Notes: a model not told the origin generated them from the letters alone. Positions 6,684 through 25,685 are shown, numbered from the stretch's first letter. The stretch: DNA of 26,758 bases from Gammaproteobacteria bacterium (GCA_050249855.1 JBFWPS010000001.1:1-26758), one strand, 5' to 3'. Numbers and translations are program-made.

Positions 6684-7531
6684 TTTTAGGCGGCGATGGA
6701 ATGCTGGGTCATCAATTGTTAAAAACACTGGATCAACATACCACTTATGTTACCTTAAGACAGGAGCTTTCTTGTTACCAATCCTTCAAGATTTTTACAA
6801 AAGAAAATAGCTTTCCCAGTATTGATATTAGACGATTTGATGATCTAATAGATGTTTTTAATGTTTTTAAACCACAAGCGGTCATCAATGCTATTGGTAT
6901 TGTTAAGCAACGCAGTGATGCTAAACAATCAATACCTAGTTTAGAAATTAACGCCTTATTTCCACATCGTTTAGCAAACCTATGTTCCATGATCAATGCC
7001 CGCATGATTCATATAAGTACTGACTGTGTGTTTTCAGGAGAAAAAGGCCAATATACTGAAGATGATCCTATGGATGCTAGAGACTTATATGGTCAATCTA
7101 AATTCTTAGGCGAAGTACATGATAATCATTGTGTTACTCTACGATCATCCATTATTGGTTTAGAACTATCTAGAAAAACCAGTTTAATTGAATGGTTCTT
7201 AGCACAAAAAGGCTCTATCTCTGGTTATCGTCGTGCAATTTATACGGGAATTACTACAGCTGAAATGTCCCGATTAATTGAAAATATATTATTAAATCAT
7301 TCCGAATTATCAGGACTTTGGCATGTTGCAAGTACGCCTATTAATAAATTTGATTTATTAAAAATGCTTGCTGAAAAACTTCCTAAAAACGATGTCATTA
7401 TTCAACCTGATGATCAATTTTTTTGTGACCGAAGCCTGATAGGAACACGATTGCAAGAGGCCATTAATTATATCCCTCCTACCTGGCATGACATGTTAAC
7501 TGAATTAGCAAATGAAATTACTAACCGATGA
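6671..7531 (+). CDS. RmlD-like SDR 4-keto-6-deoxyhexose reductase (WbvR/QnlA-like)
   Basis: GGDGMLG Rossmann motif, HISTDCVFSG, YGQSK (YxxxK); 286 aa with no C-terminal cupin domain; overlaps the GT stop. Confidence 0.85.
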   Translation: MRILILGGDGMLGHQLLKTLDQHTTYVTLRQELSCYQSFKIFTKENSFPSIDIRRFDDLIDVFNVFKPQAVINAIGIVKQRSDAKQSIPSLEINALFPHRLANLCSMINARMIHISTDCVFSGEKGQYTEDDPMDARDLYGQSKFLGEVHDNHCVTLRSSIIGLELSRKTSLIEWFLAQKGSISGYRRAIYTGITTAEMSRLIENILLNHSELSGLWHVASTPINKFDLLKMLAEKLPKNDVIIQPDDQFFCDRSLIGTRLQEAINYIPPTWHDMLTELANEITNR

Positions 7532-7540
7532 GAGAAAATT

Positions 7541-8605: not shown

Positions 8606-8609
8606 CTCT

Positions 8610-9785: not shown

Positions 9786-9869
9786 GAAAATTTCAAATGA
9801 TTGTGAGAGATCTTCTACAATCTTTTCAGTCATAGCTTATGCCCAAAAATAAAATTTGTTTATAAAATC

Positions 9870-9900
9870 CCTCTTGTGACATTTATTTAATAACAGGAGG
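9870..9900 (+). promoter_or_regulatory. Hairpin sequestering the Shine-Dalgarno of the small ORF at 9905
   Basis: CCUCUUGU (9870-9877) pairs with ACAGGAGG (9893-9900): 8 bp including one G-U, 15-nt AU-rich loop. Confidence 0.45.
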
Positions 9901-9904
9901 TTTT

Positions 9905-10081
9905 ATGCTAACAATATACGCACCCTACTCTGGCGAATTAATCGTGGGACTTATCACACTGTTAGAAGTGGCTATTGTTCCTGTCATTCATTTATATTTG
10001 AAAAACAAGAAACGAAAGCAACCCTATAGAAAATCTTTACAAATTGAATATACAATTGGATTTTCTAGAAATCGTGCTTAA
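9905..10081 (+). CDS. Small single-pass membrane protein, 58 aa (absent from the ORF track)
   Basis: Strong AGGAGG 4 nt before ATG. Translation MLTIYAPYSGELIVGLITLLEVAIVPVIHLYLKNKKRKQPYRKSLQIEYTIGFSRNRA shows a hydrophobic helix followed by a basic cluster. Confidence 0.65.
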   Translation: MLTIYAPYSGELIVGLITLLEVAIVPVIHLYLKNKKRKQPYRKSLQIEYTIGFSRNRA

Positions 10082-10230
10082 TGATTTATACTTTTCTAAA
10101 AATTTTTGTTCTATAGTGTTTTGTATAAACAAAATTAGCTATATGTAGTACATTGACTATTAGTTTAATATCAAGATATGATCTCACTATAAAAAATTGA
10201 GTAAATAAAAATAATAATAAAGGAAAACTC

Positions 10231-11121
10231 ATGTTATCGGCTAAAGCTGCCCTATTTAGTCGAGATGAATTACGTCGTAACATTTTATCATCTCAACAAA
10301 ATTTAACTTTTCTATTTACGTCTTCTACTGAAGACCCTACATTAAATCAATTTTGTTGCACTGACCCTGAACTTTGCAAAAGATGGTCTGAAATTCTCAA
10401 CAGTGCTGAACAATTGAAAATAGCTTTAAATATGGAAGGTGACATCCCTGTACAAGGTCTCATTACTGATGTCAGTCCTTTTCATCAATTATTAGGTTTT
10501 TACTATTATAAATTAAGCTTGCCTATCACTCACACACCCATAACAGATGCAAATTATAAAACTTATTATCAATATTTAATTAAAGCTGCAAATCATCATC
10601 ATATTCCTTCACTATTGATTCTTAATCGACTTGAACTATCAGAAATTTCAAAAAGTAGATGGTTAGCAAAAATAGCCAATCATATAGAAAATTTTCAAAA
10701 AATAAATGACTATGATTTTTTAAAATATTTATCTTCTTTTACAAAGACACACGGCAGTGCTATTTATTTAATTATGGCTGACTTCTATTATGGATTGGCA
10801 TCTATCACTTCATCATATGAATATCAAAACTTTCATTTGGCAGATCAATTGATTAATGATTTATTAATTCGTTGCTATGAATATATATTAATTGCAGAAA
10901 AGCTTTCTAATATTTTTGAAACCTCTCTTCAAAATGCTGGCGGTGTAATAGGATTAAATACTTTTAGTTGTAACTCATTTGATGCGCTAAAAGATCTACT
11001 ATTAAAAAATGAAGGGCGTAGGCTTTTACCCTATCTAGATCAAGCCAGAGATGTTGCAAATACTATTGCAAATAATTATCTTGAAACTCCTCGTGCAGTT
11101 ACAATTGACTCGGCCCAATGA
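10231..11121 (+). CDS. Hypothetical alpha-helical protein, effector-like (loose resemblance to Legionellales DUF5630-type proteins)
   Basis: 296-aa ORF with AAGGA SD. Segments YLIKAANHHHIPSL and AEKLS...SLQNAGG.IGL..F...S.DALK recall that family from memory only; needs an HMM check. Confidence 0.6.
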   Translation: MLSAKAALFSRDELRRNILSSQQNLTFLFTSSTEDPTLNQFCCTDPELCKRWSEILNSAEQLKIALNMEGDIPVQGLITDVSPFHQLLGFYYYKLSLPITHTPITDANYKTYYQYLIKAANHHHIPSLLILNRLELSEISKSRWLAKIANHIENFQKINDYDFLKYLSSFTKTHGSAIYLIMADFYYGLASITSSYEYQNFHLADQLINDLLIRCYEYILIAEKLSNIFETSLQNAGGVIGLNTFSCNSFDALKDLLLKNEGRRLLPYLDQARDVANTIANNYLETPRAVTIDSAQ

Positions 11122-11759
11122 ACATGTCTTACATTATTTGTTGGGCTCATTGCTCTAGTGACCTCAGGTTGAAATATACTGGCAGCTACACTTGCTGGGT
11201 TTAGATATTCAACAGGTGATTCATCACTAGGACTGCTATTCAAAGAGTTACTATCAGAATCAGATGAAGATAAACTTGTTAGTTCCTCGTAATTTAAAGA
11301 TTCAACGCGAGAATTATCACGAGCTATTGTATCAACTTCATTTGAATATCTTATGCTAGCAAAATCATCGCCATCACTAATATCATCGATAGAGTCTTCT
11401 GAATCTTCTAATCTTCTTCGAGTTGTTATTGCTTGACTAGCGATAGCAACCTCTTCAATAGGATCCTCTGAATCTTCTAATCTTCTTTGAGTTGTTCTTC
11501 CTTGACTAGAGATAGGATCCTCTTCAATAGGATCCATTGGATCTTCTAATGCTAGTGTTGCTAACTTTGCTGGGTGTGGTGGATTTGGTTGTGTGTGGAG
11601 ATCGGATCGCTGAACACTTTCTCTTAATCTTTCCTGCCAATTTGATCCGACTTGAACACAATGTTGTCTTGAAAAAAAATCCCGTATAAGTTGATTGCGT
11701 ACAGTATTTTGACAAGTTAGTCTTCGATCTGAAGACCTTTTAGATATGTTTGTATCCAT
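11076..11759 (-). CDS. Hypothetical acidic/Ser-rich disordered protein with internal 23-aa repeats, effector-like
   Basis: 227-aa ORF; in-frame 69-bp repeats; D/E/S-rich; C-terminal RHVHW; 3' end overlaps the convergent gene by 46 bp. Confidence 0.65.
   Translation of the reverse strand: MDTNISKRSSDRRLTCQNTVRNQLIRDFFSRQHCVQVGSNWQERLRESVQRSDLHTQPNPPHPAKLATLALEDPMDPIEEDPISSQGRTTQRRLEDSEDPIEEVAIASQAITTRRRLEDSEDSIDDISDGDDFASIRYSNEVDTIARDNSRVESLNYEELTSLSSSDSDSNSLNSSPSDESPVEYLNPASVAASIFQPEVTRAMSPTNNVRHVHWAESIVTARGVSR
11395..11550. repeat. Intragenic tandem repeat, 69-bp period, about 2.3 copies
   Basis: TC(T/C)TCTGAATCTTCTAATCTTCTT at 11395 and 11464, partial TCCATTGGATCTTCTAAT at 11533; encodes DPIEE...TT.RRLEDSE units. 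Confidence 0.85.
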
Positions 11760-11892
11760 AATAATTCCAATTTGATCAAAAAGATTAATAAAAAATCATG
11801 ATATCAAAAATTCAACATATGTCAATTTTTTGATTAGCTTTATTCTGATCAAATGGATATAAAATGAAAGTATTTATCAGTTTTTAATCAAA

Positions 11893-13260
11893 CTATTTCA
11901 CAACGATGGTTTTTACATTCACAAACGACTTAATTCCTTCTTCAGATAACTCACGCCCATAGCCTGATTCTTTTATGCCACCAAATGGTAATCGTGGATC
12001 TGAGGCGACAAACATATTGATAGCGCAACTACCTACTTCAATATCCTCAGCTGCTAAACGTTCTCCACGTTCTATATCTTTAGTAAATACTGCGCCAGCT
12101 AATCCAAATTTAGAATCATTAGCAATTTCAATCGCATGTGCCTCATCTTCTGCTTTGATTAAAACAACTACCGGACCAAAGATTTCTTCATCATAGGCTG
12201 GCATACCCGGTTTTACATCCGTCAACAATGTAATCGGATAATAAAATCCTTTTGTCTTAGGTATTTCACCACCCATCACTAAGGTTGCACCATTTTTAAT
12301 ACTATCTAAAACTTGTCTATGTACTTCTTCACGCAAATCTTCTCGTGACATAGGTCCTATAGTAACAGTGGGATCCATTGGGTCACCCACAATATAATGT
12401 TTAATTTTCTCTATAAGAAGTTTTAAAAAAGCATCATATATTTTCTTATTTACGATTATGCGTTTTGCTGCTATACAAACTTGGCCTGTATTGTTTAAAC
12501 GTGAAGCGATACAAGCATCGACGGCTAACTCTATGTCTGCATCATCTAACACTATATAAGGATCACTTCCACCCAATTCTAATACAACTTTTTTAAGTGC
12601 GTTTCCAGCTGTGCTAGCAATCGAACGCCCTGCTCTCACGCTCCCTGTTAATGTAACTGCAATAACATGAGGATGCCCCATTACTTTAGCCGCTGTTTCA
12701 TTAGAGAGAATTAAAGATCTAAACAAATGTTTTGGAAATCCCGCATCTTGAAAAATTTCCTCAATTTTCAATGCTGCTCCCGTGGAAATAGGAGCATGTT
12801 TGAGTAATCCAGCATTGCCTGCCATCATATTTGGTACTGCAAATCGGAATACTTGCCAGAAGGGAAAATTCCAAGGCATGATTGCAAAAACAATCCCTAA
12901 AGGTTTATATACCACATAACTTTTACTATTATTTGTTTGTATTGCTCGTGGTGTTAAATAGTGCTCAGCTTCTTTTGCATAGTGTTCACAAATCCACGCA
13001 CATTTTTCGATTTCTGCTTGTGCCGCTGTAATTGGTTTACCCATTTCTTGTGTTATTACTTCCGCAAATTCTTGTTGTCTTGCACGTAAAATTTCACCGG
13101 TTTTATTCATTAATTTAGCGCGCTCAGCAAAAGATGTTTTTTTCCATTCAAGATAGGCTTGATGCGATTCATCTATTATATTCTCAACTTCTTTTAATGA
13201 CATTTCGTCATAAGTTTTAATCGTTTCACCTGTTGCAGGATTAATAGTTTGAATTTTCAT
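11893..13260 (-). CDS. NAD(P)-dependent succinate-semialdehyde dehydrogenase (Sad/GabD1 type)
   Basis: INPATGE, AIMPWNFPFWQ, LTGSVRAG, LELGGSDP, NTGQVCIAAKR (catalytic Cys), EEIFGP, PFGGIKESGYGRELS. Confidence 0.92.
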   Translation of the reverse strand: MKIQTINPATGETIKTYDEMSLKEVENIIDESHQAYLEWKKTSFAERAKLMNKTGEILRARQQEFAEVITQEMGKPITAAQAEIEKCAWICEHYAKEAEHYLTPRAIQTNNSKSYVVYKPLGIVFAIMPWNFPFWQVFRFAVPNMMAGNAGLLKHAPISTGAALKIEEIFQDAGFPKHLFRSLILSNETAAKVMGHPHVIAVTLTGSVRAGRSIASTAGNALKKVVLELGGSDPYIVLDDADIELAVDACIASRLNNTGQVCIAAKRIIVNKKIYDAFLKLLIEKIKHYIVGDPMDPTVTIGPMSREDLREEVHRQVLDSIKNGATLVMGGEIPKTKGFYYPITLLTDVKPGMPAYDEEIFGPVVVLIKAEDEAHAIEIANDSKFGLAGAVFTKDIERGERLAAEDIEVGSCAINMFVASDPRLPFGGIKESGYGRELSEEGIKSFVNVKTIVVK

Positions 13261-13274
13261 GGTTATCCTTCAGA

Positions 13275-14864
13275 TTAAAATTGATCTGAACGTGCTTCAT
13301 GCCAAGCAGTAGCAATATCTGGTGGTAAATTCTCACCTTTTAAGAGTTGATCTTTTTCAAAGAATGGAAAAATCTCATCATAATGTTTCACAACCCCTAT
13401 ACCAACGCGTCTATAAACATAATTAGGTGTTAACTCTGAAACTTTTTTTATCCCAGCAGCGCCTAACAACTCTAAAAAACTATTGATGGTTGCATCATGG
13501 AAATGTAATACACGAGGTGCTTTATCATTAACATCTAAAGCTGCGACACGTACAGGTTCTTGGGTTGCCACACCGGTAGGACAAGTATTTTTGTTACATC
13601 GCCTCGACTGAAGACAACCTAATGCAAACATCATACCACGTGCTGAATTACACATATCAGCGCCCATTGCCATTTTACAAACTAAATCAAAGCCTGAAAT
13701 AATTTTTCCACTTGCAATAATTCGAATATGTTCTTTTAAACCTGTGCCAACTAATGCATTACGAACAAATACCAATCCTTCATTTAACGGAACTCCAACA
13801 AAATCTACGAACTCAACTGGTGCTGCACCTGTTCCGCCTTCTGCACCATCAACCGTAATAAAGTCAGGGTAAATTCCTGTCTCTAACATAGCTTTACAAA
13901 TCCCATAAAAATTTTTACGGTGTCCTACACATAATTTAAAACCAACAGGCTTTCCACCAGATAATTCGCGTAATTTTACGATAAATGATAACAGCTCTAT
14001 TGGTGTTGAAAATGCTGAGTGCCTAGCTGGTGAAACACAATCTTGTCCTATTTCAACACCTCTTACAGCTGCGATTTCTGGTGACACTTTCACTGCGGGT
14101 AAAATACCACCATGTCCCGGTTTTGCACCTTGTGATAATTTAATTTCTATCATTTTTACATTATCAAGCTGTGCTTTTTCTTGAAAAAGCACAGGATCAA
14201 AATGACCTTTTTTATCTCTACAACCAAAATAACCTGATGCAATTTGCCAGATGATGTCACCACCTTCTGCTAAATGATAAGGACTTAGCCCTCCTTCCCC
14301 TGTGTTATGAGCAAAATTTCCCATTTTTGCACCTCGATTTAAAGCTAAAATGGCATTCTTACTGATAGCACCAAAACTCATAGCAGAAATATTTAATCGA
14401 GAAGCATCATACTTCTTACTGCATTGAGGACCTCCAACAATCAATCGCGCCTCCTCATGAGATGTTACAACAGGCATAATAGAATGATTGATGGAATCAA
14501 ATCCAAAAGCATGTACATCACGCTCCGTTCCAAATGGTAATGTATCTAGTGTTTGTTTTGCGCGTTCGTAAACCATCTCTCGTTCTTCACGACTAAATGG
14601 CATACCATTTTGATCCGTTTCTATAAAATATTGCTGAATTTGAGGTCGAATCGATAGTAGTATGATACGTAAATGACCGACGATAGGATATAAGCGTAAA
14701 ATAGTTTTCTTTTTTTGCCACATGTCATAAAGACCTATAAAAAACAGTGGCACTAGGTAACAAAGATGATAAAAGTATTTATGATCTACAAATGCAACTA
14801 ATACGCCAAGCAATAAAAATGCAAGGATTGAAATGATCCAGAATAATACTCTTGCTATAGCCAC
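13275..14864 (-). CDS. FMN-binding glutamate synthase family protein with N-terminal membrane anchor
   Basis: GTG start; NISAMSFGA, NTGEGG, EIKLSQGAKPGHGG.LP, KPVGFK, DGAEGGTGAAP, CLQSRRCNKNTCPTGVATQ [3Fe-4S] Cys motif. Confidence 0.9.
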   Translation of the reverse strand: MAIARVLFWIISILAFLLLGVLVAFVDHKYFYHLCYLVPLFFIGLYDMWQKKKTILRLYPIVGHLRIILLSIRPQIQQYFIETDQNGMPFSREEREMVYERAKQTLDTLPFGTERDVHAFGFDSINHSIMPVVTSHEEARLIVGGPQCSKKYDASRLNISAMSFGAISKNAILALNRGAKMGNFAHNTGEGGLSPYHLAEGGDIIWQIASGYFGCRDKKGHFDPVLFQEKAQLDNVKMIEIKLSQGAKPGHGGILPAVKVSPEIAAVRGVEIGQDCVSPARHSAFSTPIELLSFIVKLRELSGGKPVGFKLCVGHRKNFYGICKAMLETGIYPDFITVDGAEGGTGAAPVEFVDFVGVPLNEGLVFVRNALVGTGLKEHIRIIASGKIISGFDLVCKMAMGADMCNSARGMMFALGCLQSRRCNKNTCPTGVATQEPVRVAALDVNDKAPRVLHFHDATINSFLELLGAAGIKKVSELTPNYVYRRVGIGVVKHYDEIFPFFEKDQLLKGENLPPDIATAWHEARSDQF

Positions 14865-15156
14865 AGTGAATCCTTAACTGTTATATTTTTATATGCTAGA
14901 AATTCTTAGCTGCACTTTTACATGTATGTGAAATTTGTCTAACGTTATTGTATAATTTATAGCATAAAATCAAGAGATTTCCAATCATCGAACTGCTGAC
15001 GTTCCGCCTATAATAACCCAGGGTTAAAATAGAAAAAATCAAGAATTGCAAGATCGCAATTGTGTTAAAAACTCCTGTTGATCCGGAAATTAAACAATCG
15101 AAAAGCATTGAAAATGTCGGTATGGCCAGCGACTGCCTTCAATCAGATGAATTAAA

Positions 15157-15381
15157 TTATTTCCGAAGTGTCTTAGACGCTGCTATTAGAGCATCAGAAT
15201 CTTGAATACGCCATTGACTCTCAGCAATTGTTTTATCCGCAAGACTAATACATTCTTGACGTTTCGCTTCAGAATTTTGTAGCGCGGTTTGTGCAGCTAT
15301 AAAACGACTGTTTAATGAGAAAAAACCAACCAACATCCCAATAATTGAATAACTGCTTGCCTGCTTTTGTGATGTTTTCAT
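15157..15381 (-). CDS. Hypothetical 74-aa protein (hydrophobic segment plus coiled coil)
   Basis: GGGAG SD upstream of ATG; 4 bp downstream of the 142-aa gene, suggesting an operon. Confidence 0.6.
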   Translation of the reverse strand: MKTSQKQASSYSIIGMLVGFFSLNSRFIAAQTALQNSEAKRQECISLADKTIAESQWRIQDSDALIAASKTLRK

Positions 15382-15385
15382 TGAA

Positions 15386-15814
15386 TTACTCCCTATTTGT
15401 TAATTTAGAACTCGTAGTAGGCGATTTACCTGTTGTCATGTCTGATGATCCATGGAATGTATCAACCTGGACCCGCCAAAAACACCAAGAATTCCTATAC
15501 GCGCTTGTAGTTGCATGAACAAGATACTTGCAATCGCTAAAACCTCTATCTATTTTACGAAGTTCGTCTCTTAATTCATCATTTCGATTTGAGAGTCTAG
15601 TATTTAGCTCTTGCAGTTTTAATATTTCATCTTGCAGCTTATTGCAATCGGACTGTGCTTGTTCCAAATCTCGAACATTTTTGGATTTTGTGAACAAATG
15701 TGTTGCCGTAGCTCCCGATAACCCACCAATGATCGTTAACCCCAAAGGGCTTTTTGTTCCTGACCATATTGTGGACAAAACAGTTTTAGCAAAACCACCC
15801 ATTTTCTCTTTCAT
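15386..15814 (-). CDS. Hypothetical 142-aa protein (Gly-rich TM-like segment plus coiled coil)
   Basis: AGGTGAG SD; LGLTIIGGLSGATATHLF followed by heptad-like DLEQAQSDCNKLQDEILKLQELNTRLSNRNDELRDELRKI. Confidence 0.72.
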   Translation of the reverse strand: MKEKMGGFAKTVLSTIWSGTKSPLGLTIIGGLSGATATHLFTKSKNVRDLEQAQSDCNKLQDEILKLQELNTRLSNRNDELRDELRKIDRGFSDCKYLVHATTSAYRNSWCFWRVQVDTFHGSSDMTTGKSPTTSSKLTNRE

Positions 15815-15923
15815 ACTCTCACCTTTGAAGTACCTATTTAGAAATTAATTCACTCATACTCGAGGCATGAGTCAATCTTATTCATAGTACCATAAAATAG
15901 AGCGAAGATTAATAATTTTTAGT

Positions 15924-15971
15924 CCCCCTCACCTCAACCCTCTGCCACCAAAAAAAATGTTGGGGGAGAGA
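15924..15971. repeat. Degenerate REP-like palindromic element (CCCTCACCCnAACCCTCTCCC...GGGAGAGG type)
   Basis: CCCCCTCACCTCAACCCTCTGCCACC-A-rich loop-GTTGGGGGAGAGA; resembles a widespread proteobacterial extragenic repeat; only one copy in the window. Confidence 0.4.
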
Positions 15972-16160
15972 CAAAATGCATATCATTTGAATTACGCGTT
16001 ACAAACCAACTGAAAAACTATCTGTTGTATTTCCGTGAACGCTTACAAAGATAGGCGGGACAGACTTCTCCAAAAAATAACGCCCGAAATCAGGAGTTAA
16101 ACTTTTAACCGATTCCGAAATCTGTCCTAATTAGTTAAATCTGATTTGCCTATGGATTTT

Positions 16161-17417
16161 CTACAAAACATGATTTCTAGCTTGCTGATAAAATTCTTCA
16201 GGTGATAATAGATCATTAAAATACGATTTGGCTACTCGTTTCAAGAAATCACGGAAAATAATTTTAACAATTTTATCTTCAACTCCCTGTTTATTGAATT
16301 TATCTAAAATATAGAATTCCTTGTTGTTTCGTAATTGTTCAACAAATAAATCTAAAAGATGTTGTTTTTCTTCTGTACCAAGATTTAAAAATTGCTTATC
16401 TAAATTTTCACTCAAATATCGATTATACAATTCTATATTATGCTCTTCTTTAGAAATTTTTTGTGGGTTAATTGGCGCAAACTTTCTAGATTTTATTGAG
16501 GGTAAATAGTTATCTTTTAAAGCACTAATCAAATAACCACTTAAATTGATGATATTTTTACGTTTAAAATTTGTCGATTGCATGATGACCGACATTTTCT
16601 CTTTAATAACCTCTTCTCCATAAGTCTGTAATAACTTCTCAGCTAGTGTATTTTGTAAATTAAACTGCGACATTAATTTGGCTTTTAGTGTGTCATCTTT
16701 AGATATTTTTGCATGATTTTCTGATTCTATTATCTCACTTAATTTAAAACGAATGCCCGTTACAGTACGTCCAGACTTTCGTAATTCAGGCGTAATATTC
16801 AGATCGGAGTAATCATTAACTTCTTGTACTGATTTGTCTAAAACTCTTTTCTTAAAATCACGAAATGTTAAATATCTCTGAGCGGGGATCCCCATCAGTC
16901 TTCTGAAAATATCCAATCCAAACCATTTGGTGTAAGGCAAGCCTTTAAAACGAATACAATTTTCATACAATGCTAAACCATAATTTGAATGAAAGCGCGC
17001 TTGTATTGCCATGCTAATTTTGCCATACATGATTGGAGAATAAAGTAAATCTCGCATCCTTGGACTATAAGCGTAAGTACAAACAGAACCTTTAATTCTC
17101 ACACACGATAATGCAGAACTTGCTGACCAATCTTCTTCCATACTTTGTTCATCGATGACATTCCATTCAATCACCGTTGCTAGTAAACCTTTCAATGCCT
17201 CCTTAATGGCGGCATAATTATGACCCTTATAATCTATTAATTCACATAGTTGTTTAATAGAGATAGTATGCTCTTCTTGTTGTAATAAATGATCATAAGC
17301 ATTAAATAAAAGCGCATTACTTACTTTACGCTGTAATAAACTCAACGTATTTGCGCAATGTATGGTTGCAATATGTTTTTTTATTTCTGTTCTTTTTTGT
17401 TTCATTTTTATTACCAA
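16161..17417 (-). CDS. repA: Plasmid-type replication initiator (Rep_3 winged-helix family); start may be the ATG at 17405
   Basis: LSLLQRKVSNALL, YGLALYENC, W..LD.FR.LMG, Y..F.DFK.RVL..SV.EVN..SDL, K.GR.V..I.F; iterons lie directly upstream. Confidence 0.9.
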   Translation of the reverse strand: MVIKMKQKRTEIKKHIATIHCANTLSLLQRKVSNALLFNAYDHLLQQEEHTISIKQLCELIDYKGHNYAAIKEALKGLLATVIEWNVIDEQSMEEDWSASSALSCVRIKGSVCTYAYSPRMRDLLYSPIMYGKISMAIQARFHSNYGLALYENCIRFKGLPYTKWFGLDIFRRLMGIPAQRYLTFRDFKKRVLDKSVQEVNDYSDLNITPELRKSGRTVTGIRFKLSEIIESENHAKISKDDTLKAKLMSQFNLQNTLAEKLLQTYGEEVIKEKMSVIMQSTNFKRKNIINLSGYLISALKDNYLPSIKSRKFAPINPQKISKEEHNIELYNRYLSENLDKQFLNLGTEEKQHLLDLFVEQLRNNKEFYILDKFNKQGVEDKIVKIIFRDFLKRVAKSYFNDLLSPEEFYQQARNHVL

Positions 17418-17440
17418 CGTTTTGCTATTCGCCTAAACTC

Positions 17441-17540
17441 CCCACAAACGTCACATTTTCCCCATAAATGTCTCATTTGCATCCCATAAAAGTCTCAAAT
17501 GAATCCCTCAAACGTCACAAAAGCTCCCATAGACGTCACA
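17441..17540 (+). repeat. Five direct 15-bp iterons (consensus CCCAYAAACGTCWCA), replication origin
   Basis: CCCACAAACGTCACA 17441, CCCATAAATGTCTCA 17461, CCCATAAAAGTCTCA 17483, CCCTCAAACGTCACA 17505, CCCATAGACGTCACA 17526; periods 20, 22, 22, 21 bp. Confidence 0.88.
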
Positions 17541-17716
17541 AAACTATGATTTTTCTTCATATTTTTCAATAGATTACAATCTTCTAAACAATTAAACATA
17601 TGTAAACATATAACAACATGTGATGCTTTTTAAAATAAAACAAATACATACGTTTTAAGATTACATTTAAATCAAAAACAAATAATCTTATAAATCAAAA
17701 CGTATTACATAAAAAA
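17541..17716. other. AT-rich tract adjacent to iterons, probable DNA-unwinding element
   Basis: Line 17641-17700 has 10 G+C in 60 nt; short AACAT and TAAATCAAAA (17668, 17691) repeats. Confidence 0.55.
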
Positions 17717-17761
17717 TTTTACGTAAAGTCTTATTTGATGATATAGTATGATTTTACGTAA
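17717..17761 (+). promoter_or_regulatory. Putative par promoter with two TTTTACGTAA boxes
   Basis: Extended -10 TGaTATAGT (17739-17747), -35-like TTTACG (17718-17723); TTTTACGTAA at 17717 and 17752. Confidence 0.45.
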
Positions 17762-17778
17762 TACAACAGGATATCCTA

Positions 17779-18654
17779 ATGAAAATCATTGCACCTGTAA
17801 ATAATAAAGGTGGTGTTGGTAAAACAAAAATCACAACCATTCTTGCAGAATATTTTAGTACCATTTTAGGTAAATCTGTATTAGGGATTGATTTTGATCC
17901 GCAGTGTAATTTTTCACAACTGTTTTTAAAGATGGATCTTGATCCAGCTTCACCTCAAGGCGTTATGCCCCCCATTCATCCCGAACATGATCCAAATGAT
18001 ACAGAATTTGATGACGATGGTCGAAGTTCTATTGCCAATATCTTTTTTGGTCGCCCATTTGTACCTTACCCAACTCGCCTGAAGAACTTTGAACTTGCGC
18101 CTGGGCATGCCGACAAATTACTACAAGCTGAAGCTGTTAGAAGAGCTGACGTGGCAGAAAAAGTACATAAGCAGTTGACTTTGTTGCTAGAATCACCAGA
18201 ATTACAAGAAGCTTATGACATCATCCTTATTGATACCGCGCCTTCAAAAGGACCACTAACGGTGAGTGTCTTTAAAGCAGCAACGCATATTTTGATACCA
18301 ACTGTTATGGAAGAACAACCCATTCAAGGTGTCTATGGCATGATGCAACTGTGGATGCAAGAAGCAACTTCTAGGCCTAAATCTAAACCCTTACATTTAC
18401 TTGGCATACTGCCTAATATGTTTGATAAGCAAACTTCATTACATCGTAATATGCTGGAAAGTCTCATGGAAAGTAGTGCTATTAGTAAGTACATTATGCC
18501 TACAAAGTTAGGTGACCGTATTGTTTTTGCTGAAGTTGATACTACATCAAACAGCTCTCAATCTATTTTTGATTTACCAGATTCAAATCCAGCAAAGATT
18601 GAGGCTTTGAAATTTTGTGAATATGTAACGAATAAGGTGTTTCAAGATGAATAA
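17779..18654 (+). CDS. parA: ParA family Walker-A partition ATPase (no N-terminal HTH)
   Basis: Deviant Walker A NNKGGVGKT at residues 8-16, IDFDPQCN, YDIILIDTAPS, GILPNMFD. Confidence 0.92.
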   Translation: MKIIAPVNNKGGVGKTKITTILAEYFSTILGKSVLGIDFDPQCNFSQLFLKMDLDPASPQGVMPPIHPEHDPNDTEFDDDGRSSIANIFFGRPFVPYPTRLKNFELAPGHADKLLQAEAVRRADVAEKVHKQLTLLLESPELQEAYDIILIDTAPSKGPLTVSVFKAATHILIPTVMEEQPIQGVYGMMQLWMQEATSRPKSKPLHLLGILPNMFDKQTSLHRNMLESLMESSAISKYIMPTKLGDRIVFAEVDTTSNSSQSIFDLPDSNPAKIEALKFCEYVTNKVFQDE

Positions 18655-19648
18655 AAAAAAACGTTTTGGTGTATCTAATGTTTTAAGTAAGGGTTTTGAA
18701 GAAACCATAGCACTGGTTGAAAATAATCAAGGATTATTTCGAAGCGCATCGATACCACTGACTCGCATTGAGTTGGATCCTGATAATCCACGTGAGCTGG
18801 CATTAACCATGTTAGATGTTCAAACAAGTATTGTATCTGAAGATCCTTTGTTTATTCAGAAGCAAGAAGAGCATGCACGTTTATCCGAGCTAGCTAATAC
18901 AATTCGTTTAAATGGAGTCATCAATCCCATTATTGTATACAAACATCGAGAGAACTATCGTGTTGTAGCTGGCGAGCGGAGAACACTTGCTTCAATCATT
19001 GCTGGTAAAACGGAAATCGACGCCAGAATTTATCATGAGAAACCTTCGTTGTTGGATTTAAAATTGGTTCAATGGATAGAAAATACAGCTCGGGAAGATC
19101 TAAGCTTGGCAGAAAGAATCAATAATATGAATGATATTATTTCGGCTTACGTTGCTAAGTATCAAGTTGATGTTTTAAGTCCGGCGTTGCTTCGCGAAAT
19201 AACGGGTTTATCAGCTGCTCAAGTTTCTTGTTATCAAGCCATTATCAATGCACCAACTGATATTCTAGATGCAATTAAGGAAGGCCGTGTTAATAGCCTT
19301 GATAAGGCTGCCTATCTAGCTAAAATCGATGATCCCAGTTTAAGAGGAATGGCTTTAGTGCACTGTATTAATGGTGCAACACTAAAAGCTTTAAAAGAAT
19401 TGACCACGTCGCAACGACGAATGAATAGAAATAAGACTTCAAAGGGTCAACGTGGCAGGGTTCCATCACGTATTGACTTGGGATATGCCAATAAAGCAAA
19501 AGTCGTTCAATTGATTGTTGAAGCGATGTTAAATCAAGGAACAAATAACAAATATAGTCGTTTATTTAATAACATGGATTGGAGTAATATGCCACTCGTC
19601 AGTCAGACCTTTAAAAAGTTTATAACCATGTTAGAAGCCGAGATATAG
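18647..19648 (+). CDS. parB: ParB/RepB/Spo0J family partition protein
   Basis: DPDNPR, L..TI...GVINPI.V, VVAGERRTLA (CTPase arginine patch), ENTAREDLS..E, HTH region; overlaps the parA stop. Confidence 0.92.
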   Translation: MNKKKRFGVSNVLSKGFEETIALVENNQGLFRSASIPLTRIELDPDNPRELALTMLDVQTSIVSEDPLFIQKQEEHARLSELANTIRLNGVINPIIVYKHRENYRVVAGERRTLASIIAGKTEIDARIYHEKPSLLDLKLVQWIENTAREDLSLAERINNMNDIISAYVAKYQVDVLSPALLREITGLSAAQVSCYQAIINAPTDILDAIKEGRVNSLDKAAYLAKIDDPSLRGMALVHCINGATLKALKELTTSQRRMNRNKTSKGQRGRVPSRIDLGYANKAKVVQLIVEAMLNQGTNNKYSRLFNNMDWSNMPLVSQTFKKFITMLEAEI

Positions 19649-19649
19649 A

Positions 19650-20000
19650 ATGATGCTACAAGATACGATAATGACCTCCGTTAAAATTCCCAAAACGATT
19701 CATACACAATTATTACATGCGGTTGTTGCTCAAGGTTACGGTATGCGTGGAAAAAGTAAATGGGTTACGCAGGCTGTTGATGAATTACTTGCTTTACCAT
19801 CATCTACGTTAGCTGACTTAGTTGATATTGCAGCAGAGATGACAGATCTAACAGAAGTACTAACCATCCGTTTACCTGCTTCTATTGTAGAGCGTCTTGA
19901 AAAAAGCGTGATCTTGGTTAGAACGGTTTATCCAGCAATGGAAGGTGTTAAGAGTAATATCATTCGTTCAGCGATTCTCCAACGCTTATTACGCAATTAA
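19650..20000 (+). CDS. Small DNA-binding protein with two tandem ribbon-helix-helix-like units
   Basis: Unit 1 TSVKIPKTIHTQL...KSKWVTQAVDELL; unit 2 LTIRLPASIVERL...KSNIIRSAILQRL; 1 bp after the parB stop. Confidence 0.7.
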   Translation: MMLQDTIMTSVKIPKTIHTQLLHAVVAQGYGMRGKSKWVTQAVDELLALPSSTLADLVDIAAEMTDLTEVLTIRLPASIVERLEKSVILVRTVYPAMEGVKSNIIRSAILQRLLRN

Positions 20001-20013
20001 TTCGGTCACCGAA
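20001..20013. promoter_or_regulatory. Perfect 13-bp palindrome TTCGGT-C-ACCGAA, candidate parS/operator
   Basis: Begins at the base immediately after the par operon stop codon; no U-tract on the + strand. Confidence 0.45.
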
Positions 20014-20080
20014 AAATCACATAACTCATTGAAAAATAAAGAATTTAATGTGTTTTAATTCGTTGCTAGAATTTATAATA

Positions 20081-20161
20081 TGTGACGTTTGTGGGATAGT
20101 TGATTTTTATAATTGATATATTATAACCTAATTTATGATAAGTTAGTGTGACGTCTATGGG
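20081..20161 (-). repeat. Two inverted iteron copies (accessory inc-type locus)
   Basis: TGTGACGTTTGTGGG 20081-20095 is the exact reverse complement of iteron 1; TGTGACGTCTATGGG 20147-20161 is the exact reverse complement of iteron 5; 66 bp apart. Confidence 0.85.
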
Positions 20162-20180
20162 GTTTAAATTATTGACTAAA

Positions 20181-20196
20181 TGTTCCATGTAGAACG
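20181..20196. promoter_or_regulatory. Degenerate chromosomal-type parS-like 16-mer
   Basis: TGTTCCATGTAGAACG matches TGTTCCACGTGGAACA at 13 of 16 positions. Confidence 0.3.
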
Positions 20197-20474
20197 TTAG
20201 GCATTGTTTTATTTTAACGCAGCATATTGATCAAGATAGGTGGAAAAAGGAATATAATGTTGAGGAATAGCGCATTTTAATTCCCAATGTGAGTAATGGA
20301 TTAAAAATTTGGCTTTATGAGCAGGTTATCTCATTGAACAGAGCTTAAATATGATTTGGACTCAATTTTTGTGAAAATCGCGGAGATATAGATAGATTAT
20401 TGGTATGCTTAGTATTCAGGTAAACTAATAGGTTTGATAAGTGCAAACCTGTACGTTGTTCCATTTCATGTACT

Positions 20475-21185
20475 TTGGCAAAAATGATGCAAAAATTTAG
20501 ATTTATAATTTTAATATTGTTTCTAGGGGTGTGTTTTCATACACATGCTGAAGAAAATAATACGATTGTTTGGACAGATGTCATCTTGTTTGGTTCATTA
20601 CATCCTGATAATAAATGGAAATATTTTATCCAACCACAATTGAGATGGATCGACAGAGATCATAAGCTAGAGCAGGCTATATTTCGCTCAGGTATAGGAT
20701 ATGCATGTAAAGATAGTCTGCTATTTTGGATAGGCGAGCAATTGCACGCGAGCAATCAAGTCAATGGTAACCCACCATTAGGTTATATCTGGGAACGGGC
20801 AGATTATCGAGTGCTAAATTATGATAATTTTAAGCTATGGGGACGTACTCAATTTGATGAGCGTAGAATGGAAGGTCGCTCAACATGGTCAATCCGTTTA
20901 AGAGAAAGAGTTTCGTTCTTATTTCCCAATACAATCCATCATAAAATAAGTCCTCTTATCTATAATGAAGTTTTCTTTTATTTAAATAAAATGAACTGGT
21001 CAAAAAATGACGAAAATCTACAAAATCGATTTTTCGCTGGGGTTAATATTCCCTGGAAACGTTCAGCATTTTGGGAGGTTGGTTATTTTAATCAGTCATT
21101 TTTTAGAGCAAGTGAAAACCGTATCAATTCAAGTGGGAACCGTGTTAATAATGGTATATATTTGTCTCTTATTATCGATTTATAA
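20475..21185 (+). CDS. DUF2490-like outer-membrane beta-barrel protein; start probably the ATG at 20484 or 20487
   Basis: Signal peptide (..HTHA-EE); alternating beta pattern, R.GIGY, R.R.R, YNEVFF.LN, QNRFFAGV, EVGYFNQ, terminal LSLIIDL. Confidence 0.72.
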   Translation: MAKMMQKFRFIILILFLGVCFHTHAEENNTIVWTDVILFGSLHPDNKWKYFIQPQLRWIDRDHKLEQAIFRSGIGYACKDSLLFWIGEQLHASNQVNGNPPLGYIWERADYRVLNYDNFKLWGRTQFDERRMEGRSTWSIRLRERVSFLFPNTIHHKISPLIYNEVFFYLNKMNWSKNDENLQNRFFAGVNIPWKRSAFWEVGYFNQSFFRASENRINSSGNRVNNGIYLSLIIDL

Positions 21186-21205
21186 AAGTATATGTGAGTA
21201 AATAA

Positions 21206-22078
21206 ATGGGTGGTTATAAAGAAAACCTGAATTCTATTGATAAAAAGATAATTGTATTAGCACTTGAAGAAGATCTGGGGCCTGCTATGCAGGATGTCAC
21301 TTCAGAATTATTATTAGGTGAAGATACGCGTAGATATAAGGCACGTATTATTTCAAAAGAAAAAAATACGATCGTTCTTTGTGGGTTAGCTATTTTAGAA
21401 ACGCTATTAGCTTCTAGTAGTGAGGAGATCTCATTTCAAACGAATTTTGTGGATGGGCAAATAATAGAACCTGGAGAAACAATCTTAATTCTCGAAGGTC
21501 CTGCAAAAGATTTACTTATTATCGAAAGAACGTTACTTAATTTTTTACAGCATCTTTCTTCAATCGCAACCCACACGGCACGTTTCGTAAAAGCAGTGGA
21601 AGGGACCGTATTAAAAATATTAGATACACGTAAAACAACACCGGGATTGAGACATCTTGAGAAATATGCTGTGCATTGTGGTGGTGGCGTGAACCATCGA
21701 GTTGGTTTGTATGATGCAATCATGATTAAAGATACGCATGTAGATTTAATAGGCGGTATGCAAAAAACGTTAAGTTATTTTGCAAAATTACCTAAACAAA
21801 ACGTGCCTGTGATTGTGGAAGTAAGAAATAAAGAGGAATTAGCAATTGTGTTGGAGTATCATCGTTTTATTTCACGTATACTTTTAGACAATATGGATAT
21901 TGAGTTACTAACAGCTTGTGTGAAACAATGTAAAGGTATTATTAGCACGGAAGCTTCGGGCGGAATTACTTTAGCAAACATACGTGCAATTGCAGAAACT
22001 GGTGTTGATTTTGCTTCAATTGGTCAATTAACACATTCTGCTGTGCATGTCGATTTATCTATGAAATGTGATATATGA
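21206..22078 (+). CDS. nadC: Nicotinate-nucleotide diphosphorylase (carboxylating), QPRTase
   Basis: AL.ED, ERT.LN, DTRKTTPGLR, HRVGLYDAIMIKDTH, VEV, ILLDNM, EASGGI, S.G.LTHS. Confidence 0.96.
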   Translation: MGGYKENLNSIDKKIIVLALEEDLGPAMQDVTSELLLGEDTRRYKARIISKEKNTIVLCGLAILETLLASSSEEISFQTNFVDGQIIEPGETILILEGPAKDLLIIERTLLNFLQHLSSIATHTARFVKAVEGTVLKILDTRKTTPGLRHLEKYAVHCGGGVNHRVGLYDAIMIKDTHVDLIGGMQKTLSYFAKLPKQNVPVIVEVRNKEELAIVLEYHRFISRILLDNMDIELLTACVKQCKGIISTEASGGITLANIRAIAETGVDFASIGQLTHSAVHVDLSMKCDI

Positions 22079-23712
22079 CAAATCAAGTTATTTCTCAACG
22101 TGGTGATCGATACGAATTTGACGTACTTGTCTTTGGTGGCGGTCTAGCGGGTTTAAGTTATATATTAGAATTACTTAAAATACATCCAACTTTACGTGTA
22201 GCATTATTAACTAAAACAGAATTATCGGAATCCAATAGTGCATATGCACAAGGTGGTATTGCAGCAGCGATACAGCCACCGGATAGTATTCCACAACATT
22301 TACAAGATACTTTAGTTGCAGGAGATGGGTTGTGTGATCACGATGTTGTGGAATCTATTACACTGCATGCCAGTGAAAGTATCGACTATTTGGTTAAGCT
22401 AGGGGTACAATTTACTCGTAATACAGAAGGTGAATTGGAGTGTGGTCACGAAGCAGGTCATTCACAACGGAGAATTTATCATTGTGGTGATGCAACAGGT
22501 GCCGAGATTATCAAAGCGCTTTTAAGACACCTTCAAACACAATCATCATTAACTATTTTTGAGGAACATATGGCTGTGCGTTTAATCAAGCGCACACGAT
22601 TTTATATTCCTGGGGAATTTCCAGAGATTATCGGCGCATATGTTTTAGATGAAAAAACCAGTAAAATCCATACTTTTTTAGCTAAAGTTGTTGTTTTAGC
22701 CACAGGTGGTGCTGGCAAAGTTTATCGTTATACATCCAATCCTGATATTGCAACGGGTGATGGTATCGCAATGGCATATCGTGCAGGTGCACGCGTGAGA
22801 AATATGGAATTTTATCAGTTTCATCCAACTTTGCTTTATCATCCTAAAAAACATAACTTTCTTATTTCTGAGGCTTTGAGAGGGGAGGGTGCTTATCTTC
22901 GACGGGTTGAAGATGAGACTCGATTTATGAAAGATTATGCGCCTGAAATGATGGAACTAGCTACACGAGATGTGGTTTCGAGAGCTATTTTTACAGAGAT
23001 TGAGCGAAGTCATGATGATTATGTGTATCTTGATATACGTCATAAAAATAAAGCTTTTTTGCAAAAGCGTTTTCCAGTAATTTATCAGACATTACAATCA
23101 TTAGGCTTAGATTTAGCGAAAGACCTAATACCCGTTGTTCCAGCAGCGCATTATTTATGTGGTGGTGTTTTGGCAGATGTTCACGGCCAAACGGATTTAC
23201 AACGTTTGTTTGTGATTGGTGAAACAGCTGCAACTGGTTTACATGGTGCTAATCGACTTGCTAGTAATTCTTTGTTGGAATGTATCATCATGGGAAGAAA
23301 TGCTGCACATGCTTGTAGCCCTTGGTTATCAACCCCTACTATTGATTCAGTAAATGATTGGGATTCAACGAGTGTTGTTGATTTACGTCGAGCAACCCAA
23401 ATTAGCGCTAACTGGAGAGGGTTACGTGGAGAAATGAGCTCATATGCGGGGATTATTAGGACTGAAAAAGGCTTGAGTGATTTGCTAAAATTAATAATAG
23501 AGAGGCAGAAAATGGTTGAAGAATATTACTGGAATTATGTTATTACCAGAGATGTTGTTGAACTTAGGAATATTATTACAGTTGCTGAATTAATTGTTCG
23601 TTCTGCCTTAAGACGCAGAGAGAGTCGCGGAGGTCATTTTAGGGAAGATTTTCCAAACAAATATGACCAAGCTTCTCCGTATGCTATATTTTCAAAGGAT
23701 ACACGATATTAG
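22075..23712 (+). CDS. nadB: L-aspartate oxidase
   Basis: GGGLAG, S.YAQGGIA, EAGHS.RR, TGDG.AMA, QFHPT, SEALRGEG, ELATRDVVSR, HY.CGG, GLHGANRLASNSLLE, R.ESRGGH. Confidence 0.96.
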   Translation: MTNQVISQRGDRYEFDVLVFGGGLAGLSYILELLKIHPTLRVALLTKTELSESNSAYAQGGIAAAIQPPDSIPQHLQDTLVAGDGLCDHDVVESITLHASESIDYLVKLGVQFTRNTEGELECGHEAGHSQRRIYHCGDATGAEIIKALLRHLQTQSSLTIFEEHMAVRLIKRTRFYIPGEFPEIIGAYVLDEKTSKIHTFLAKVVVLATGGAGKVYRYTSNPDIATGDGIAMAYRAGARVRNMEFYQFHPTLLYHPKKHNFLISEALRGEGAYLRRVEDETRFMKDYAPEMMELATRDVVSRAIFTEIERSHDDYVYLDIRHKNKAFLQKRFPVIYQTLQSLGLDLAKDLIPVVPAAHYLCGGVLADVHGQTDLQRLFVIGETAATGLHGANRLASNSLLECIIMGRNAAHACSPWLSTPTIDSVNDWDSTSVVDLRRATQISANWRGLRGEMSSYAGIIRTEKGLSDLLKLIIERQKMVEEYYWNYVITRDVVELRNIITVAELIVRSALRRRESRGGHFREDFPNKYDQASPYAIFSKDTRY

Positions 23713-23718
23713 GGGTTT

Positions 23719-25065
23719 ATGATGGATATAAAAGATTTTAAAACGACAGAGGAAAAAATACATAAAACGAATGTATTACAATATCCTTCCGAAATGGAAA
23801 TCTGTCAAAGTGATTATCCAACTGATTGGTATCAAGAGGAATTTTTACCTTATGCTGAAGAATATCAACAATTACCTGATAGAGATTTAGTAACGGTTCT
23901 AGCATGGATGAAGCCTTATTTTGAAAAAGCAATTGATCATTTTGGTGATGCACTTTTATTATTAGCTCATTATTATATGGGTGGTGATATTGTTAGAATG
24001 GTAAAAGAGTTGGGTGGAGAGATAGGTGATTCTTATCAACTTGCGCTTATGGCAGTCAATCATCCAGAAAAGAAAGTGATTATTGAGTCTGCAGTGCATT
24101 TCATGGCGGAATCTATCAGTATTTTAGCCAATAAGGATCAAACAGTTTGTATTACTAATCCAAAATCAGGTTGTACTATGGAAATGTTGGCAAAAGATTT
24201 TATGGTTGCCCCTGCATTTAAAGGACTGAATGAACGGTATGGTGATGAAAATATATTGCCGGTTTGCTATATGAATACTTCGGGACGTATTAAGGCAATG
24301 ACAGGTGCACAAGGTGGTGCCGTTTGTACTAGTTCTAATGTAAAGAAAATATTTGCTTGGGCTTTAGCACAGAATAAAAAGATTTTATTTATACCCGATA
24401 GACATATGGGCGAAAATGTTGCTCGTTGGCTCAATATTCCGGATAAAAAAATTGCGTATTGGCCTGCTGGTGAAGAAGGTGCACGATACGGATTAAAAAA
24501 TTTAGATCAAAAATCAATTGCGCATTTTGATCAATCTCAATTGATTTTGTTTGCTAGTCAATGTGGTGTGCATACCTATTATACCCCGGAAATGATAGCC
24601 TATTGGCATAAAGAAGGATATAACGTCGTTGTACATCCAGAATGCCGTAAAGAAGTGGTAGCTGCCGCAGATGCGTGTGGATCAACCGCGTTTATATATG
24701 ATTATGTTGGAAAAGATCGTGCTGGTACTGGGAAATATGCTGTTGGTACTGAAAATCACATGGTTAAAAATTTAAAAGAAGAATTTAGAAATTTACAGAT
24801 TGTAAATTTAGGAGACGTACCAAACATTACTGCAAAAATGGGATGCGGTTGTGCAACCATGTCACGTAATGATCCGCCACATTTGGTTGCGTTACTAGAT
24901 TTATTAAGATTAGGTAAAATTCCTGAATTTAATATTGTACGTCCTGGCGATGTAGTAAATGAATTTACTGGGACACGACAACGATTAGATGAAGCGGGTC
25001 AAGCGTGGATAATCAATAATGCAAAGCGTGCATTAGAAAAAATGATTAGCATTACTGAAAGTTAA
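23719..25065 (+). CDS. nadA: Quinolinate synthase, long (448 aa) form
   Basis: LAHYY, GDSYQL, VHFMAE, GCTM, YMNTS, CTSSN, PDRHMG, QCGVH, HPEC, GST, GTE, GCGCATM; three Fe-S Cys present. Confidence 0.94.
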   Translation: MMDIKDFKTTEEKIHKTNVLQYPSEMEICQSDYPTDWYQEEFLPYAEEYQQLPDRDLVTVLAWMKPYFEKAIDHFGDALLLLAHYYMGGDIVRMVKELGGEIGDSYQLALMAVNHPEKKVIIESAVHFMAESISILANKDQTVCITNPKSGCTMEMLAKDFMVAPAFKGLNERYGDENILPVCYMNTSGRIKAMTGAQGGAVCTSSNVKKIFAWALAQNKKILFIPDRHMGENVARWLNIPDKKIAYWPAGEEGARYGLKNLDQKSIAHFDQSQLILFASQCGVHTYYTPEMIAYWHKEGYNVVVHPECRKEVVAAADACGSTAFIYDYVGKDRAGTGKYAVGTENHMVKNLKEEFRNLQIVNLGDVPNITAKMGCGCATMSRNDPPHLVALLDLLRLGKIPEFNIVRPGDVVNEFTGTRQRLDEAGQAWIINNAKRALEKMISITES

Positions 25066-25121
25066 TTGTTTTTTTATTCTCTTCGAAATATCAAAGTTGA
25101 TTTTTCTGGTGCTAGCAAAAA

Positions 25122-25424
25122 TTATAAAGAGCGAAGAGGAACGGGCGTGTCATTTAATGCTGTCTCGTCGGTTATAACATTGGCTTTCCTCGAGTATTTT
25201 TCTACAGGGAGTATATTTTCTCGTAGTATGACATCTTCTAGTCTCTCAGATAAATGCCAACGTTGTTGCCAAGCTTCTGGAGAAAGTTTCAAATTGAGCA
25301 TCTTTCTACCTGCCTTCTCTAAAGTATCTATGAAATCAGGGTCCCACCACGAGTGAAAGCGAAACTGTCGTTGATAATCGTCACCGACTTTACTTCTCAT
25401 GCCTTTTGTACGTAAAAATGTCAA
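25122..25424 (-). CDS. Hypothetical protein (about 92-100 aa; start TTG 25424 or ATG 25400)
   Basis: Protein-like composition (FHSWWDPDFIDTLEKAG, PEAWQQRWHL); AAAAGG before ATG 25400; fills a gap between nadA and the RNase III gene. Confidence 0.5.
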   Translation of the reverse strand: MTFLRTKGMRSKVGDDYQRQFRFHSWWDPDFIDTLEKAGRKMLNLKLSPEAWQQRWHLSERLEDVILRENILPVEKYSRKANVITDETALNDTPVPLRSL

Positions 25425-25685
25425 AATGTAAACCCCCCATTTATAGAATTTAGCATTCTCCCCCCAGTTACGTAAATCAGTTATAGGTTTTTCACGCTGC
25501 TGCTATGGTGTCAATGTCAAAAGACCGTAATATGGTTATCTCAAAAGTTGACTATCTCATGAAGAGTGATTTTTAAAAGATATATAAGTTAGAATAAGTT
25601 CTGATGTTTCGTAAAATAGTTAAGCAACTTATTTGGTTGCTTTATGTTCTAGTTATATTTAATAATATGGACGTCAGCTTCATGA

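Follow-up and report, generated by a model that had tools for sequence, protein, structure and literature searches.

The window considered here is the whole of contig C1, a stretch of 26,758 bp and the longest of the 309 contigs of G000, a metagenome-assembled genome (MAG) of a gammaproteobacterium. At 16.1–20.2 kb it carries a plasmid-type replication and partition cassette, comprising an initiator gene, an array of iterons, an AT-rich tract and a par operon. The initiator gene, repA, lies on the minus strand (16161–17417) and, from a probable ATG at 17405, encodes a protein of 414 residues which Pfam assigns to the Rep3 family (WH1+WH2) of iteron-binding initiators. Both of its domains exceed the gathering cut-offs (Rep3_N, 3.4e-14; Rep3_C, 6.8e-18), and the protein possesses a C-terminal extension of about 190 residues. 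RepA is 40–41% identical to plasmid Rep proteins of Legionella, Aquicella and Coxiella QpH1 and has more than 1000 metagenomic homologues, some of them on contigs of 120–750 kb. Distant homologues reside on ordinary mobile plasmids, where their neighbours are VirB4/VirB6, a Mu-like transposase or a serine recombinase. When RepA was compared by sequence with the PDB, no chain matched at E ≤ 0.01.

Five direct iterons occupy 17441–17547 on the plus strand, the first of them 36 bp upstream of the repA ATG. They begin at 17441, 17461, 17483, 17505 and 17526, giving a period of 20–22 bp, and share the core CCCAyAaAcGTCaCA. Two inverted iterons (20081–20095 and 20147–20161, minus strand), 66 bp apart, are located downstream of the par operon. 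A search of the window with the iteron core CCCATAAACGTCACA yielded seven matches with at most two mismatches, where 0.03 are expected from shuffles; the remaining 2.04 Mb of the assembly contains just two isolated matches. The five-iteron array may constitute both the Rep-binding core of the origin and the repA operator, and the inverted pair may act in copy control (handcuffing) or as auxiliary Rep sites. Between the iterons and parA lies a tract of 231 bp (17548–17778) which is 80% AT, a putative DNA-unwinding element that would also contain the par promoter. Two TTACGTAA palindromes within this tract, at 17719 and 17754, are candidates for a par operator or centromere site.

The par operon is transcribed away from repA, on the plus strand. 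Its first gene, parA (17779–18654), encodes a small Walker-type partition ATPase of 291 residues lacking the N-terminal HTH (Pfam AAA_31/CbiA, NCBIfam ParA_partition), which is 45–64% identical to the ParA proteins of the homologous cassettes described below. It is followed by parB (18647–19648), encoding a protein of 333 residues with a ParB_N domain, and by orf116 (19650–20000), encoding a conserved protein of 116 residues. A counterpart of 107–121 residues occupies the same place in every homologous cassette examined. No significant Pfam match was obtained for orf116, the sole hint being a sub-threshold RHH. A preliminary description of this DNA, made from the sequence alone, had reported an intact repA, five iterons, an AT-rich tract and parAB, and the Pfam domains, iteron matches and base composition bear this out. 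It had also remarked on the lack of mobility genes; indeed, no integrase, transposase or conjugation domain was found by Pfam in the C1 open reading frames (ORFs) of at least 80 residues.

Strand composition and integrity of the contig

The cassette coincides with a change in strand composition spanning 17418–18445. By full count over the whole contig, the G–C skew is −0.091 for 1–17440 and +0.138 for 17779–26758, so the C-rich to G-rich switch noted earlier at this locus is confirmed. The cumulative G–C minimum, which had been expected near 17.4–20.2 kb, falls at 18445. The change-point in GC skew at third codon positions (GC3 skew) falls at 17779, the start of parA. GC3 skew is uniformly negative along the left arm (1–16160) and, taken by arm, amounts to −0.22 on the left and +0.24 on the right. 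Measured on the top strand, it is −0.23 for the plus-strand genes of the left arm, −0.21 for its minus-strand genes and +0.24 for the right arm. Since the left-arm genes of both strands are alike in skew, gene orientation cannot account for the switch, in agreement with the earlier argument that coding-strand bias was not its cause. Across the genome, replication contributes a median of 0.19 to GC3 skew and transcription 0.045. With a z of 9.1, the change-point at 17779 is the largest among the 115 contigs of at least 6 kb, followed by |z| values of 4.8 (C23, ter-type) and 4.6 (C2). The ori-type pattern, negative then positive, is unaffected by contig orientation. This is the mark left by forks that set out from the gap between rep and par over a period sufficient for synonymous sites to re-equilibrate. 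The presence of an intact module exactly at an ori-type switch of genome-typical amplitude thus points to a bidirectional origin which has long functioned for C1 DNA.

Switches of the opposite, ter-type polarity (positive to negative) were observed on C23, C72 and C39, with z values of −4.8, −4.6 and −3.9. The chromosome and the secondary replicons may have their termini on these contigs.

The MAG comprises 2.07 Mb at 35.0% GC and is 93% complete, with an estimated contamination of 2.2%. C1 derives from a landfill metagenome, and nearly identical sequence was encountered in independent runs from sludge and wastewater. For the source run, Logan's separate assembly includes a contig of 10,059 bp which is identical to 14966–25024 and spans hyp142, repA, the iterons, parAB, orf116, a DUF2490 gene and nadCBA; misassembly, raised previously as something that would overturn the interpretation, is not borne out. 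The left contig is covered at 6.3x and the rep/right contig at 7.4x, and in four runs all parts of C1 are found together with comparable read depth. Position 14894 is joined to 16182 on a contig from an independent bioreactor-sludge run, such that the gene for a GltB-like protein abuts the 3' end of repA. There, the 1287-bp stretch 14895–16181, containing the ORF for a 142-residue coiled-coil protein and spacers, is replaced by 40 unrelated nucleotides, so that this ORF is evidently dispensable for the replicon.

At its right end, C1 (26625–26758, 134 bp) matches positions 153–286 of contig C286 at 95% identity. Beyond the match, C286 carries ychJ on the minus strand and then the gene for a PBP4/DacB-type carboxypeptidase on the plus strand, both with positive GC3 skew, as in the right arm. 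C286 probably continues the replicon, the link running through a strain-variant bubble. Comparison of the C1 ends with every other contig revealed no k-mer overlap (21–127 nt), and exact-protein look-ups with the RNase III-like and PotD proteins, aimed at extending C1, retrieved no record.

Related replicons, dnaA and the cargo genes

Six homologous cassettes were compared with that of C1: on G002:C166, on a 749,608-bp ENA contig (L043), on a 320-kb contig of the Aquicella-like genome G041 (G041:C2), on an Aquicella lusitana contig, and on contigs of 122.6 kb (L046) and 34.7 kb (L048). They share the gene order, the small third gene and the 15-bp iteron core CCCATAAACGTCACA, of which 4–5 phased copies precede rep. 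In L040, L043, L044, L045, L046 and L048 the par operon is followed by one or two inverted iterons. The neighbouring genes in the relatives specify leucine catabolism and an RlmI-like methyltransferase, purine biosynthesis (purC/purQ/purL) or methionine salvage; two of the cassettes are also found beside genes for an orphan chromosomal-type ParB (HTH_ParB + ParB_C) and a LexA-like protein. In L043 the cassette is located at about 157 kb of the 749,608-bp contig, which could be a very large Rep-driven replicon. The cumulative GC3 skew of G041:C2 has its maximum near 76 kb (ter-type) and its minimum at 249.8 kb, inside the rep–par cassette, and both ends of the contig are positive in skew, as a circle would show. 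This contig has no DnaA-family match, the dnaA match of G041 being on another contig. The pivoting of its skew polarity on the cassette indicates that the Rep family to which the C1 protein belongs drives large replicons with their own ori and ter. Only 16% of the ORFs of G041:C2 have orthologue-like matches in G000, compared with 47% for a chromosomal control segment, indicating that the cargo is flexible and megaplasmid-like. C1 and G041:C2 share only rep/par and a Fis-like gene.

The preliminary description had entertained the possibility that the cassette is a Rep-driven chromosome origin. This is contradicted by the presence of dnaA on another contig of the MAG, C186, with its N-terminal and AAA+ domains intact until the contig end. 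Upstream of this gene is a 350-bp spacer of 80% AT containing three perfect TTATCCACA boxes. A local ori-type change accompanies it, the two genes upstream of dnaA having negative GC3 skew and dnaA itself positive. C1, which was to be checked for dnaA, rRNA and ribosomal-protein genes, has no rRNA, ribosomal or other universal core gene in its 26.8 kb, and neither a tRNA nor any other Rfam family was detected on it. In the relative G041, the 40 kb around dnaA (C10:60–99 kb) has uniformly negative GC3 skew, with no switch at dnaA.

The MAG contains a second, paralogous rep-parA-parB-orf113 cassette on contig C121 (L036:550–4560), which is 37–45% identical to that of C1. It has a different iteron, TGTGACnnTTACAGGG, of which six copies are situated behind the par operon (about 4413–4550) and one at the rep promoter (1850). 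The C121 cassette presumably belongs to a third, compatible replicon. Its existence indicates that rep–par modules serve as accessory replicon backbones in the host organism.

The right, leading-strand arm of C1 carries, by Pfam, a nadC-nadB-nadA operon on the plus strand (21206–25065). This is the sole copy in the assembly, no nadA or nadC paralogue being present elsewhere in G000. No gene of the NAPRTase family (PncB/NadV) was found in the MAG, an absence which, at 93% completeness, is weak evidence. NadA occurs in 28 of 36 class-level relatives and has no match in any of four same-family genomes. The C1 protein is long (448 residues) and scores 209 bits, against about 290–375 bits for all but one class relative. 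The gene is probably an acquired one of divergent type, not a relocated core gene. These findings suggest that nadCBA is a de novo NAD pathway regained horizontally on a secondary replicon. Further to the right, 25686–26726 encodes a protein of 346 residues with two RNase III domains (Pfam, NCBIfam).

The left arm specifies an AcrB fragment, an SLT protein, a PotD-like solute-binding protein (SBP), an MltB-family transglycosylase, an NAGPA-like protein and a Fis-like HTH protein. It also contains a four-gene sugar-nucleotide/glycosyltransferase cluster and genes for a DUF5630 protein, SSADH, the GltB-like FMN protein and the 142-residue coiled-coil protein. Two tandem 69-bp repeats, 84% identical, are located at 11383–11520, inside an ORF (11076–11759) for an acidic orphan protein of 227 residues.

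Among the same-family genomes, the closed genome G003 has no Rep, NadA or PotD match, and its matches to MltB, the GltB-like protein and DacB are distant paralogues only (33–43% identity). G004, of the same genus as G003, has three Rep matches and cargo orthologues at 57–67% identity. G001 has Rep matches and close cargo orthologues, and G002 has Rep and the GltB-like gene only. Within the family, cargo and Rep thus tend to be found in the same genomes, in keeping with a secondary replicon. On no relative's contig is the C1 cargo linked to Rep. Judged from sequence, the flanks of C1 are flexible and partly horizontally acquired metabolism, not relocated core genes; the genes described earlier as housekeeping are better seen as cargo. 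The 124-kb contig C25 of G001 was considered as a Rep replicon on account of an ori-type switch near 86 kb (about 85–90 kb). Encoded at this switch are an amidotransferase, a LuxR-type regulator and the reverse transcriptase of a group II intron, with no Rep and no iterons.

Interpretation and alternatives

Taken together, the 16.1–20.2 kb segment probably serves as the working oriV and partition cassette of a secondary replicon of megaplasmid type, which would be kept at low copy, replicate by the theta mode and have long resided in a Legionellales-like lineage. The host assignment, already made in the preliminary description, agrees with the roughly 40% identity of RepA to Legionella, Aquicella and Coxiella QpH1 Reps and with the DUF5630 gene. 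We infer the firing of this origin, its bidirectionality, its copy number, its separateness from the chromosome and the size of the C1 replicon. By homology to Rep3/iteron plasmids (pPS10, F, R6K), RepA monomers would bind the five phased iterons just upstream of repA, melt the adjoining 80% AT tract and recruit the host DnaB and replisome, and forks would then depart from the origin in both directions. By occupying the iterons over the rep promoter, RepA would autoregulate its own gene. Copy number may be limited through Rep-mediated pairing with the two inverted iterons, which lie behind the par operon at a distance of 2.5 kb. Distant additional iterons are familiar from the copy-control loci incA of P1 and incC of F. 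Segregation of the copies would be the task of ParA, ParB and the conserved 116-residue protein.

Several observations weigh against this interpretation. No DnaA box TTATCCACA is present, at one mismatch or fewer, in 17300–17900 or 19950–20500; such a box at the origin is common in iteron plasmids, though not universal. Besides rep and par, C1 carries no plasmid-typical genes. The contig stops on both sides, with no circular junction or end overlap. Its resemblance to the MAG in GC content (34.96% vs 35.04%) and in tetranucleotide distance, which lies inside the null for all three segments tested, is partly circular, since binning selects for exactly this likeness. Finally, contig C25 of G001 clusters orthologues of PotD, MltB, NAGPA, YchJ, a 569-residue ORF, the GltB-like protein and SSADH; it has no Rep match and one tRNA, and could be chromosomal.

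This last point is central to the proposal that C1 is itself chromosomal, with rep/par and nadCBA inserted between the GltB-like gene and ychJ by integration of a plasmid or formation of a co-integrate; the skew switch would then mark either an integrated origin that is still active or the breakpoint of an inversion that happens to fall there. Integration of plasmid sequences into the chromosome is known from Coxiella strains, and C1 has no mobility genes. The flanking-gene orthologues stand together on the G001 contig without Rep, and relative to the gene order there the 15.0–26.7 kb block of C1 takes the place of the 569-residue ORF after one inversion. Nevertheless, an inactive integrated origin predicts skew of the same sign on both sides, whereas here at least 16 kb on the left and at least 9 kb on the right, together with C286, are opposite and at full amplitude. 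A simple inversion between YchJ and SSADH predicts switches at the ends of the segment and not in its middle. There is no integrase and no tRNA on C1, and no att-like direct repeat of at least 18 bp brackets the module, the kind of repeat which the preliminary description had held would refute its inference; rep, par and all seven iterons are intact. Moreover, in G041 the skew of the 320-kb contig reaches its minimum at the homologous cassette. Integration is accordingly regarded as improbable. An artefact, be it a chimeric assembly or the mis-binning of a plasmid from another organism, could be imagined from the low coverage (about 6–7x), the 309 contigs and the 2.2% contamination. It is scarcely credible given that the second assembler's 10-kb contig is identical across hyp142-rep-par-nadCBA, that an independent sample links a left-arm gene to repA, that the parts have similar depth in four runs, that C1 agrees with the MAG in GC, tetranucleotide usage and skew amplitude, and that both the Rep family and the DUF5630 gene are consistent with a Legionellales-like host.

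Two further alternatives accept the cassette as an active origin and differ over what it serves. The suggestion that a plasmid-type origin has replaced oriC on the main chromosome draws on the C1 switch being the strongest of ori type in the assembly and on the lack of a skew switch around dnaA in G041. It is nonetheless very improbable, since G000 has kept dnaA with its three perfect boxes in an 80% AT region and a local negative-to-positive skew change; a paralogous cassette exists on C121, closed G003 lacks a Rep match, and the near-origin cargo is accessory. A chromid, that is, an indispensable chromosome-like element carrying irreplaceable functions such as the only NAD route, is unlikely, though less so. 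The rep/par genes are of plasmid type, GC and tetranucleotide usage match the genome, and the skew is as strong as that of other contigs. With no second nadCBA copy and no NAPRTase detected in the MAG, the replicon could be conditionally indispensable. The cassettes of relatives adjoin genes for purine biosynthesis, methionine salvage, leucine catabolism and an rRNA methyltransferase. Set against this, universal core genes, among them those for tRNA, rRNA and ribosomal proteins, are missing from C1, the four same-family genomes yielded no nadA and the C1 copy is divergent and probably acquired, and cargo has not been kept between C1 and the 320-kb homologous replicon of G041. Chromids are considered rare in Gammaproteobacteria beyond Vibrionaceae, Pseudoalteromonas and Rahnella. 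Were C1 a chromid whose NAD route was acquired after the family had lost nadA, it would exemplify a host-associated bacterium regaining metabolic autonomy via a domesticated plasmid.

The earlier claim that this is the active origin of a large domesticated replicon is therefore upheld in part. The skew and the intact module argue for a long-used origin, and the separate dnaA locus for its belonging to a secondary replicon and not to the chromosome, whilst the terms "large" and "chromid" are unproven. The size threshold, in the convention credited to diCenzo and Finan in 2017, is reportedly at least 350 kb; conservation across a genus is a further mark of chromids.

If the cassette is indeed the origin of a secondary replicon, the family to which it belongs does not serve small plasmids alone. 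Common in Aquicella-, Coxiella- and Legionella-like bacteria, this family has a strikingly conserved 15-bp iteron and can be the long-term origin of replicons which have chromosome-like composition and carry whole metabolic pathways. In genome-resolved metagenomics, contigs such as C1 ought to be handled as separate replicons. In intracellular bacteria, secondary replicons may be a place where lost biosynthesis, here that of NAD de novo, is regained. The rule that DnaA and oriC govern the main chromosome is not overturned.

Comparison with known systems

The organisation of C1 as AT-rich tract, phased iterons of about 22 bp and rep is that of the plasmids encoding pPS10 RepA, F RepE, R6K pi and pSC101 RepA, whose initiators likewise combine Rep3_N and Rep3_C. 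Unlike these classical iteron plasmids, C1 has no recognisable DnaA box at its origin, and its Rep is longer by a C-terminal half of about 190 residues. With the megaplasmids and chromids of Gammaproteobacteria it shares plasmid-type rep/par genes, a chromosome-like composition and a GC-skew polarity of its own, although it differs from established chromids in having no universal core gene on its known 26.8 kb. Aquicella and Legionella are listed in a survey among the genera having strains with secondary replicons of at least 350 kb (PMC10272867).

Coxiella plasmids had earlier been said to carry a module comparable to that of C1, and this holds for QpH1 of Coxiella burnetii (CBUA0036–CBUA0039). 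Its Rep is a homologue, 41% identical across 96% of the protein; parA and parB adjoin rep, and both hosts are of the Legionellales/Coxiellaceae type. The gene orientation differs, however, parA-parB-rep being co-directional in QpH1, and this 37-kb plasmid has a long form of ParA (about 406 residues). No iteron array of the C1 type was found in the 6.7 kb of QpH1 examined, which contains one match with three mismatches.

The closest parallel is provided by the Aquicella-type cassette (Aquicella lusitana draft contig QQAX01000010 and a 281-kb contig; metagenomic contigs of 35–750 kb). As in C1, rep diverges from parA-parB and a third gene for a protein of 107–121 residues, 4–5 iterons with the core CCCATAAACGTCACA and a period of 21–22 bp lie upstream of rep, one or two inverted copies follow the third gene, and the adjoining genes are metabolic operons and not mobility genes. 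The Reps are only about 46–55% identical and the cargo is distinct: nadCBA, cell-wall and LPS genes in C1, as opposed to liu genes with RlmI, purine-biosynthesis or methionine-salvage genes in the Aquicella-type cassettes. An origin of a secondary replicon built from rep, iterons and par is thus a known arrangement in the Legionella/Coxiella-like group, and not a new kind of chromosome origin.

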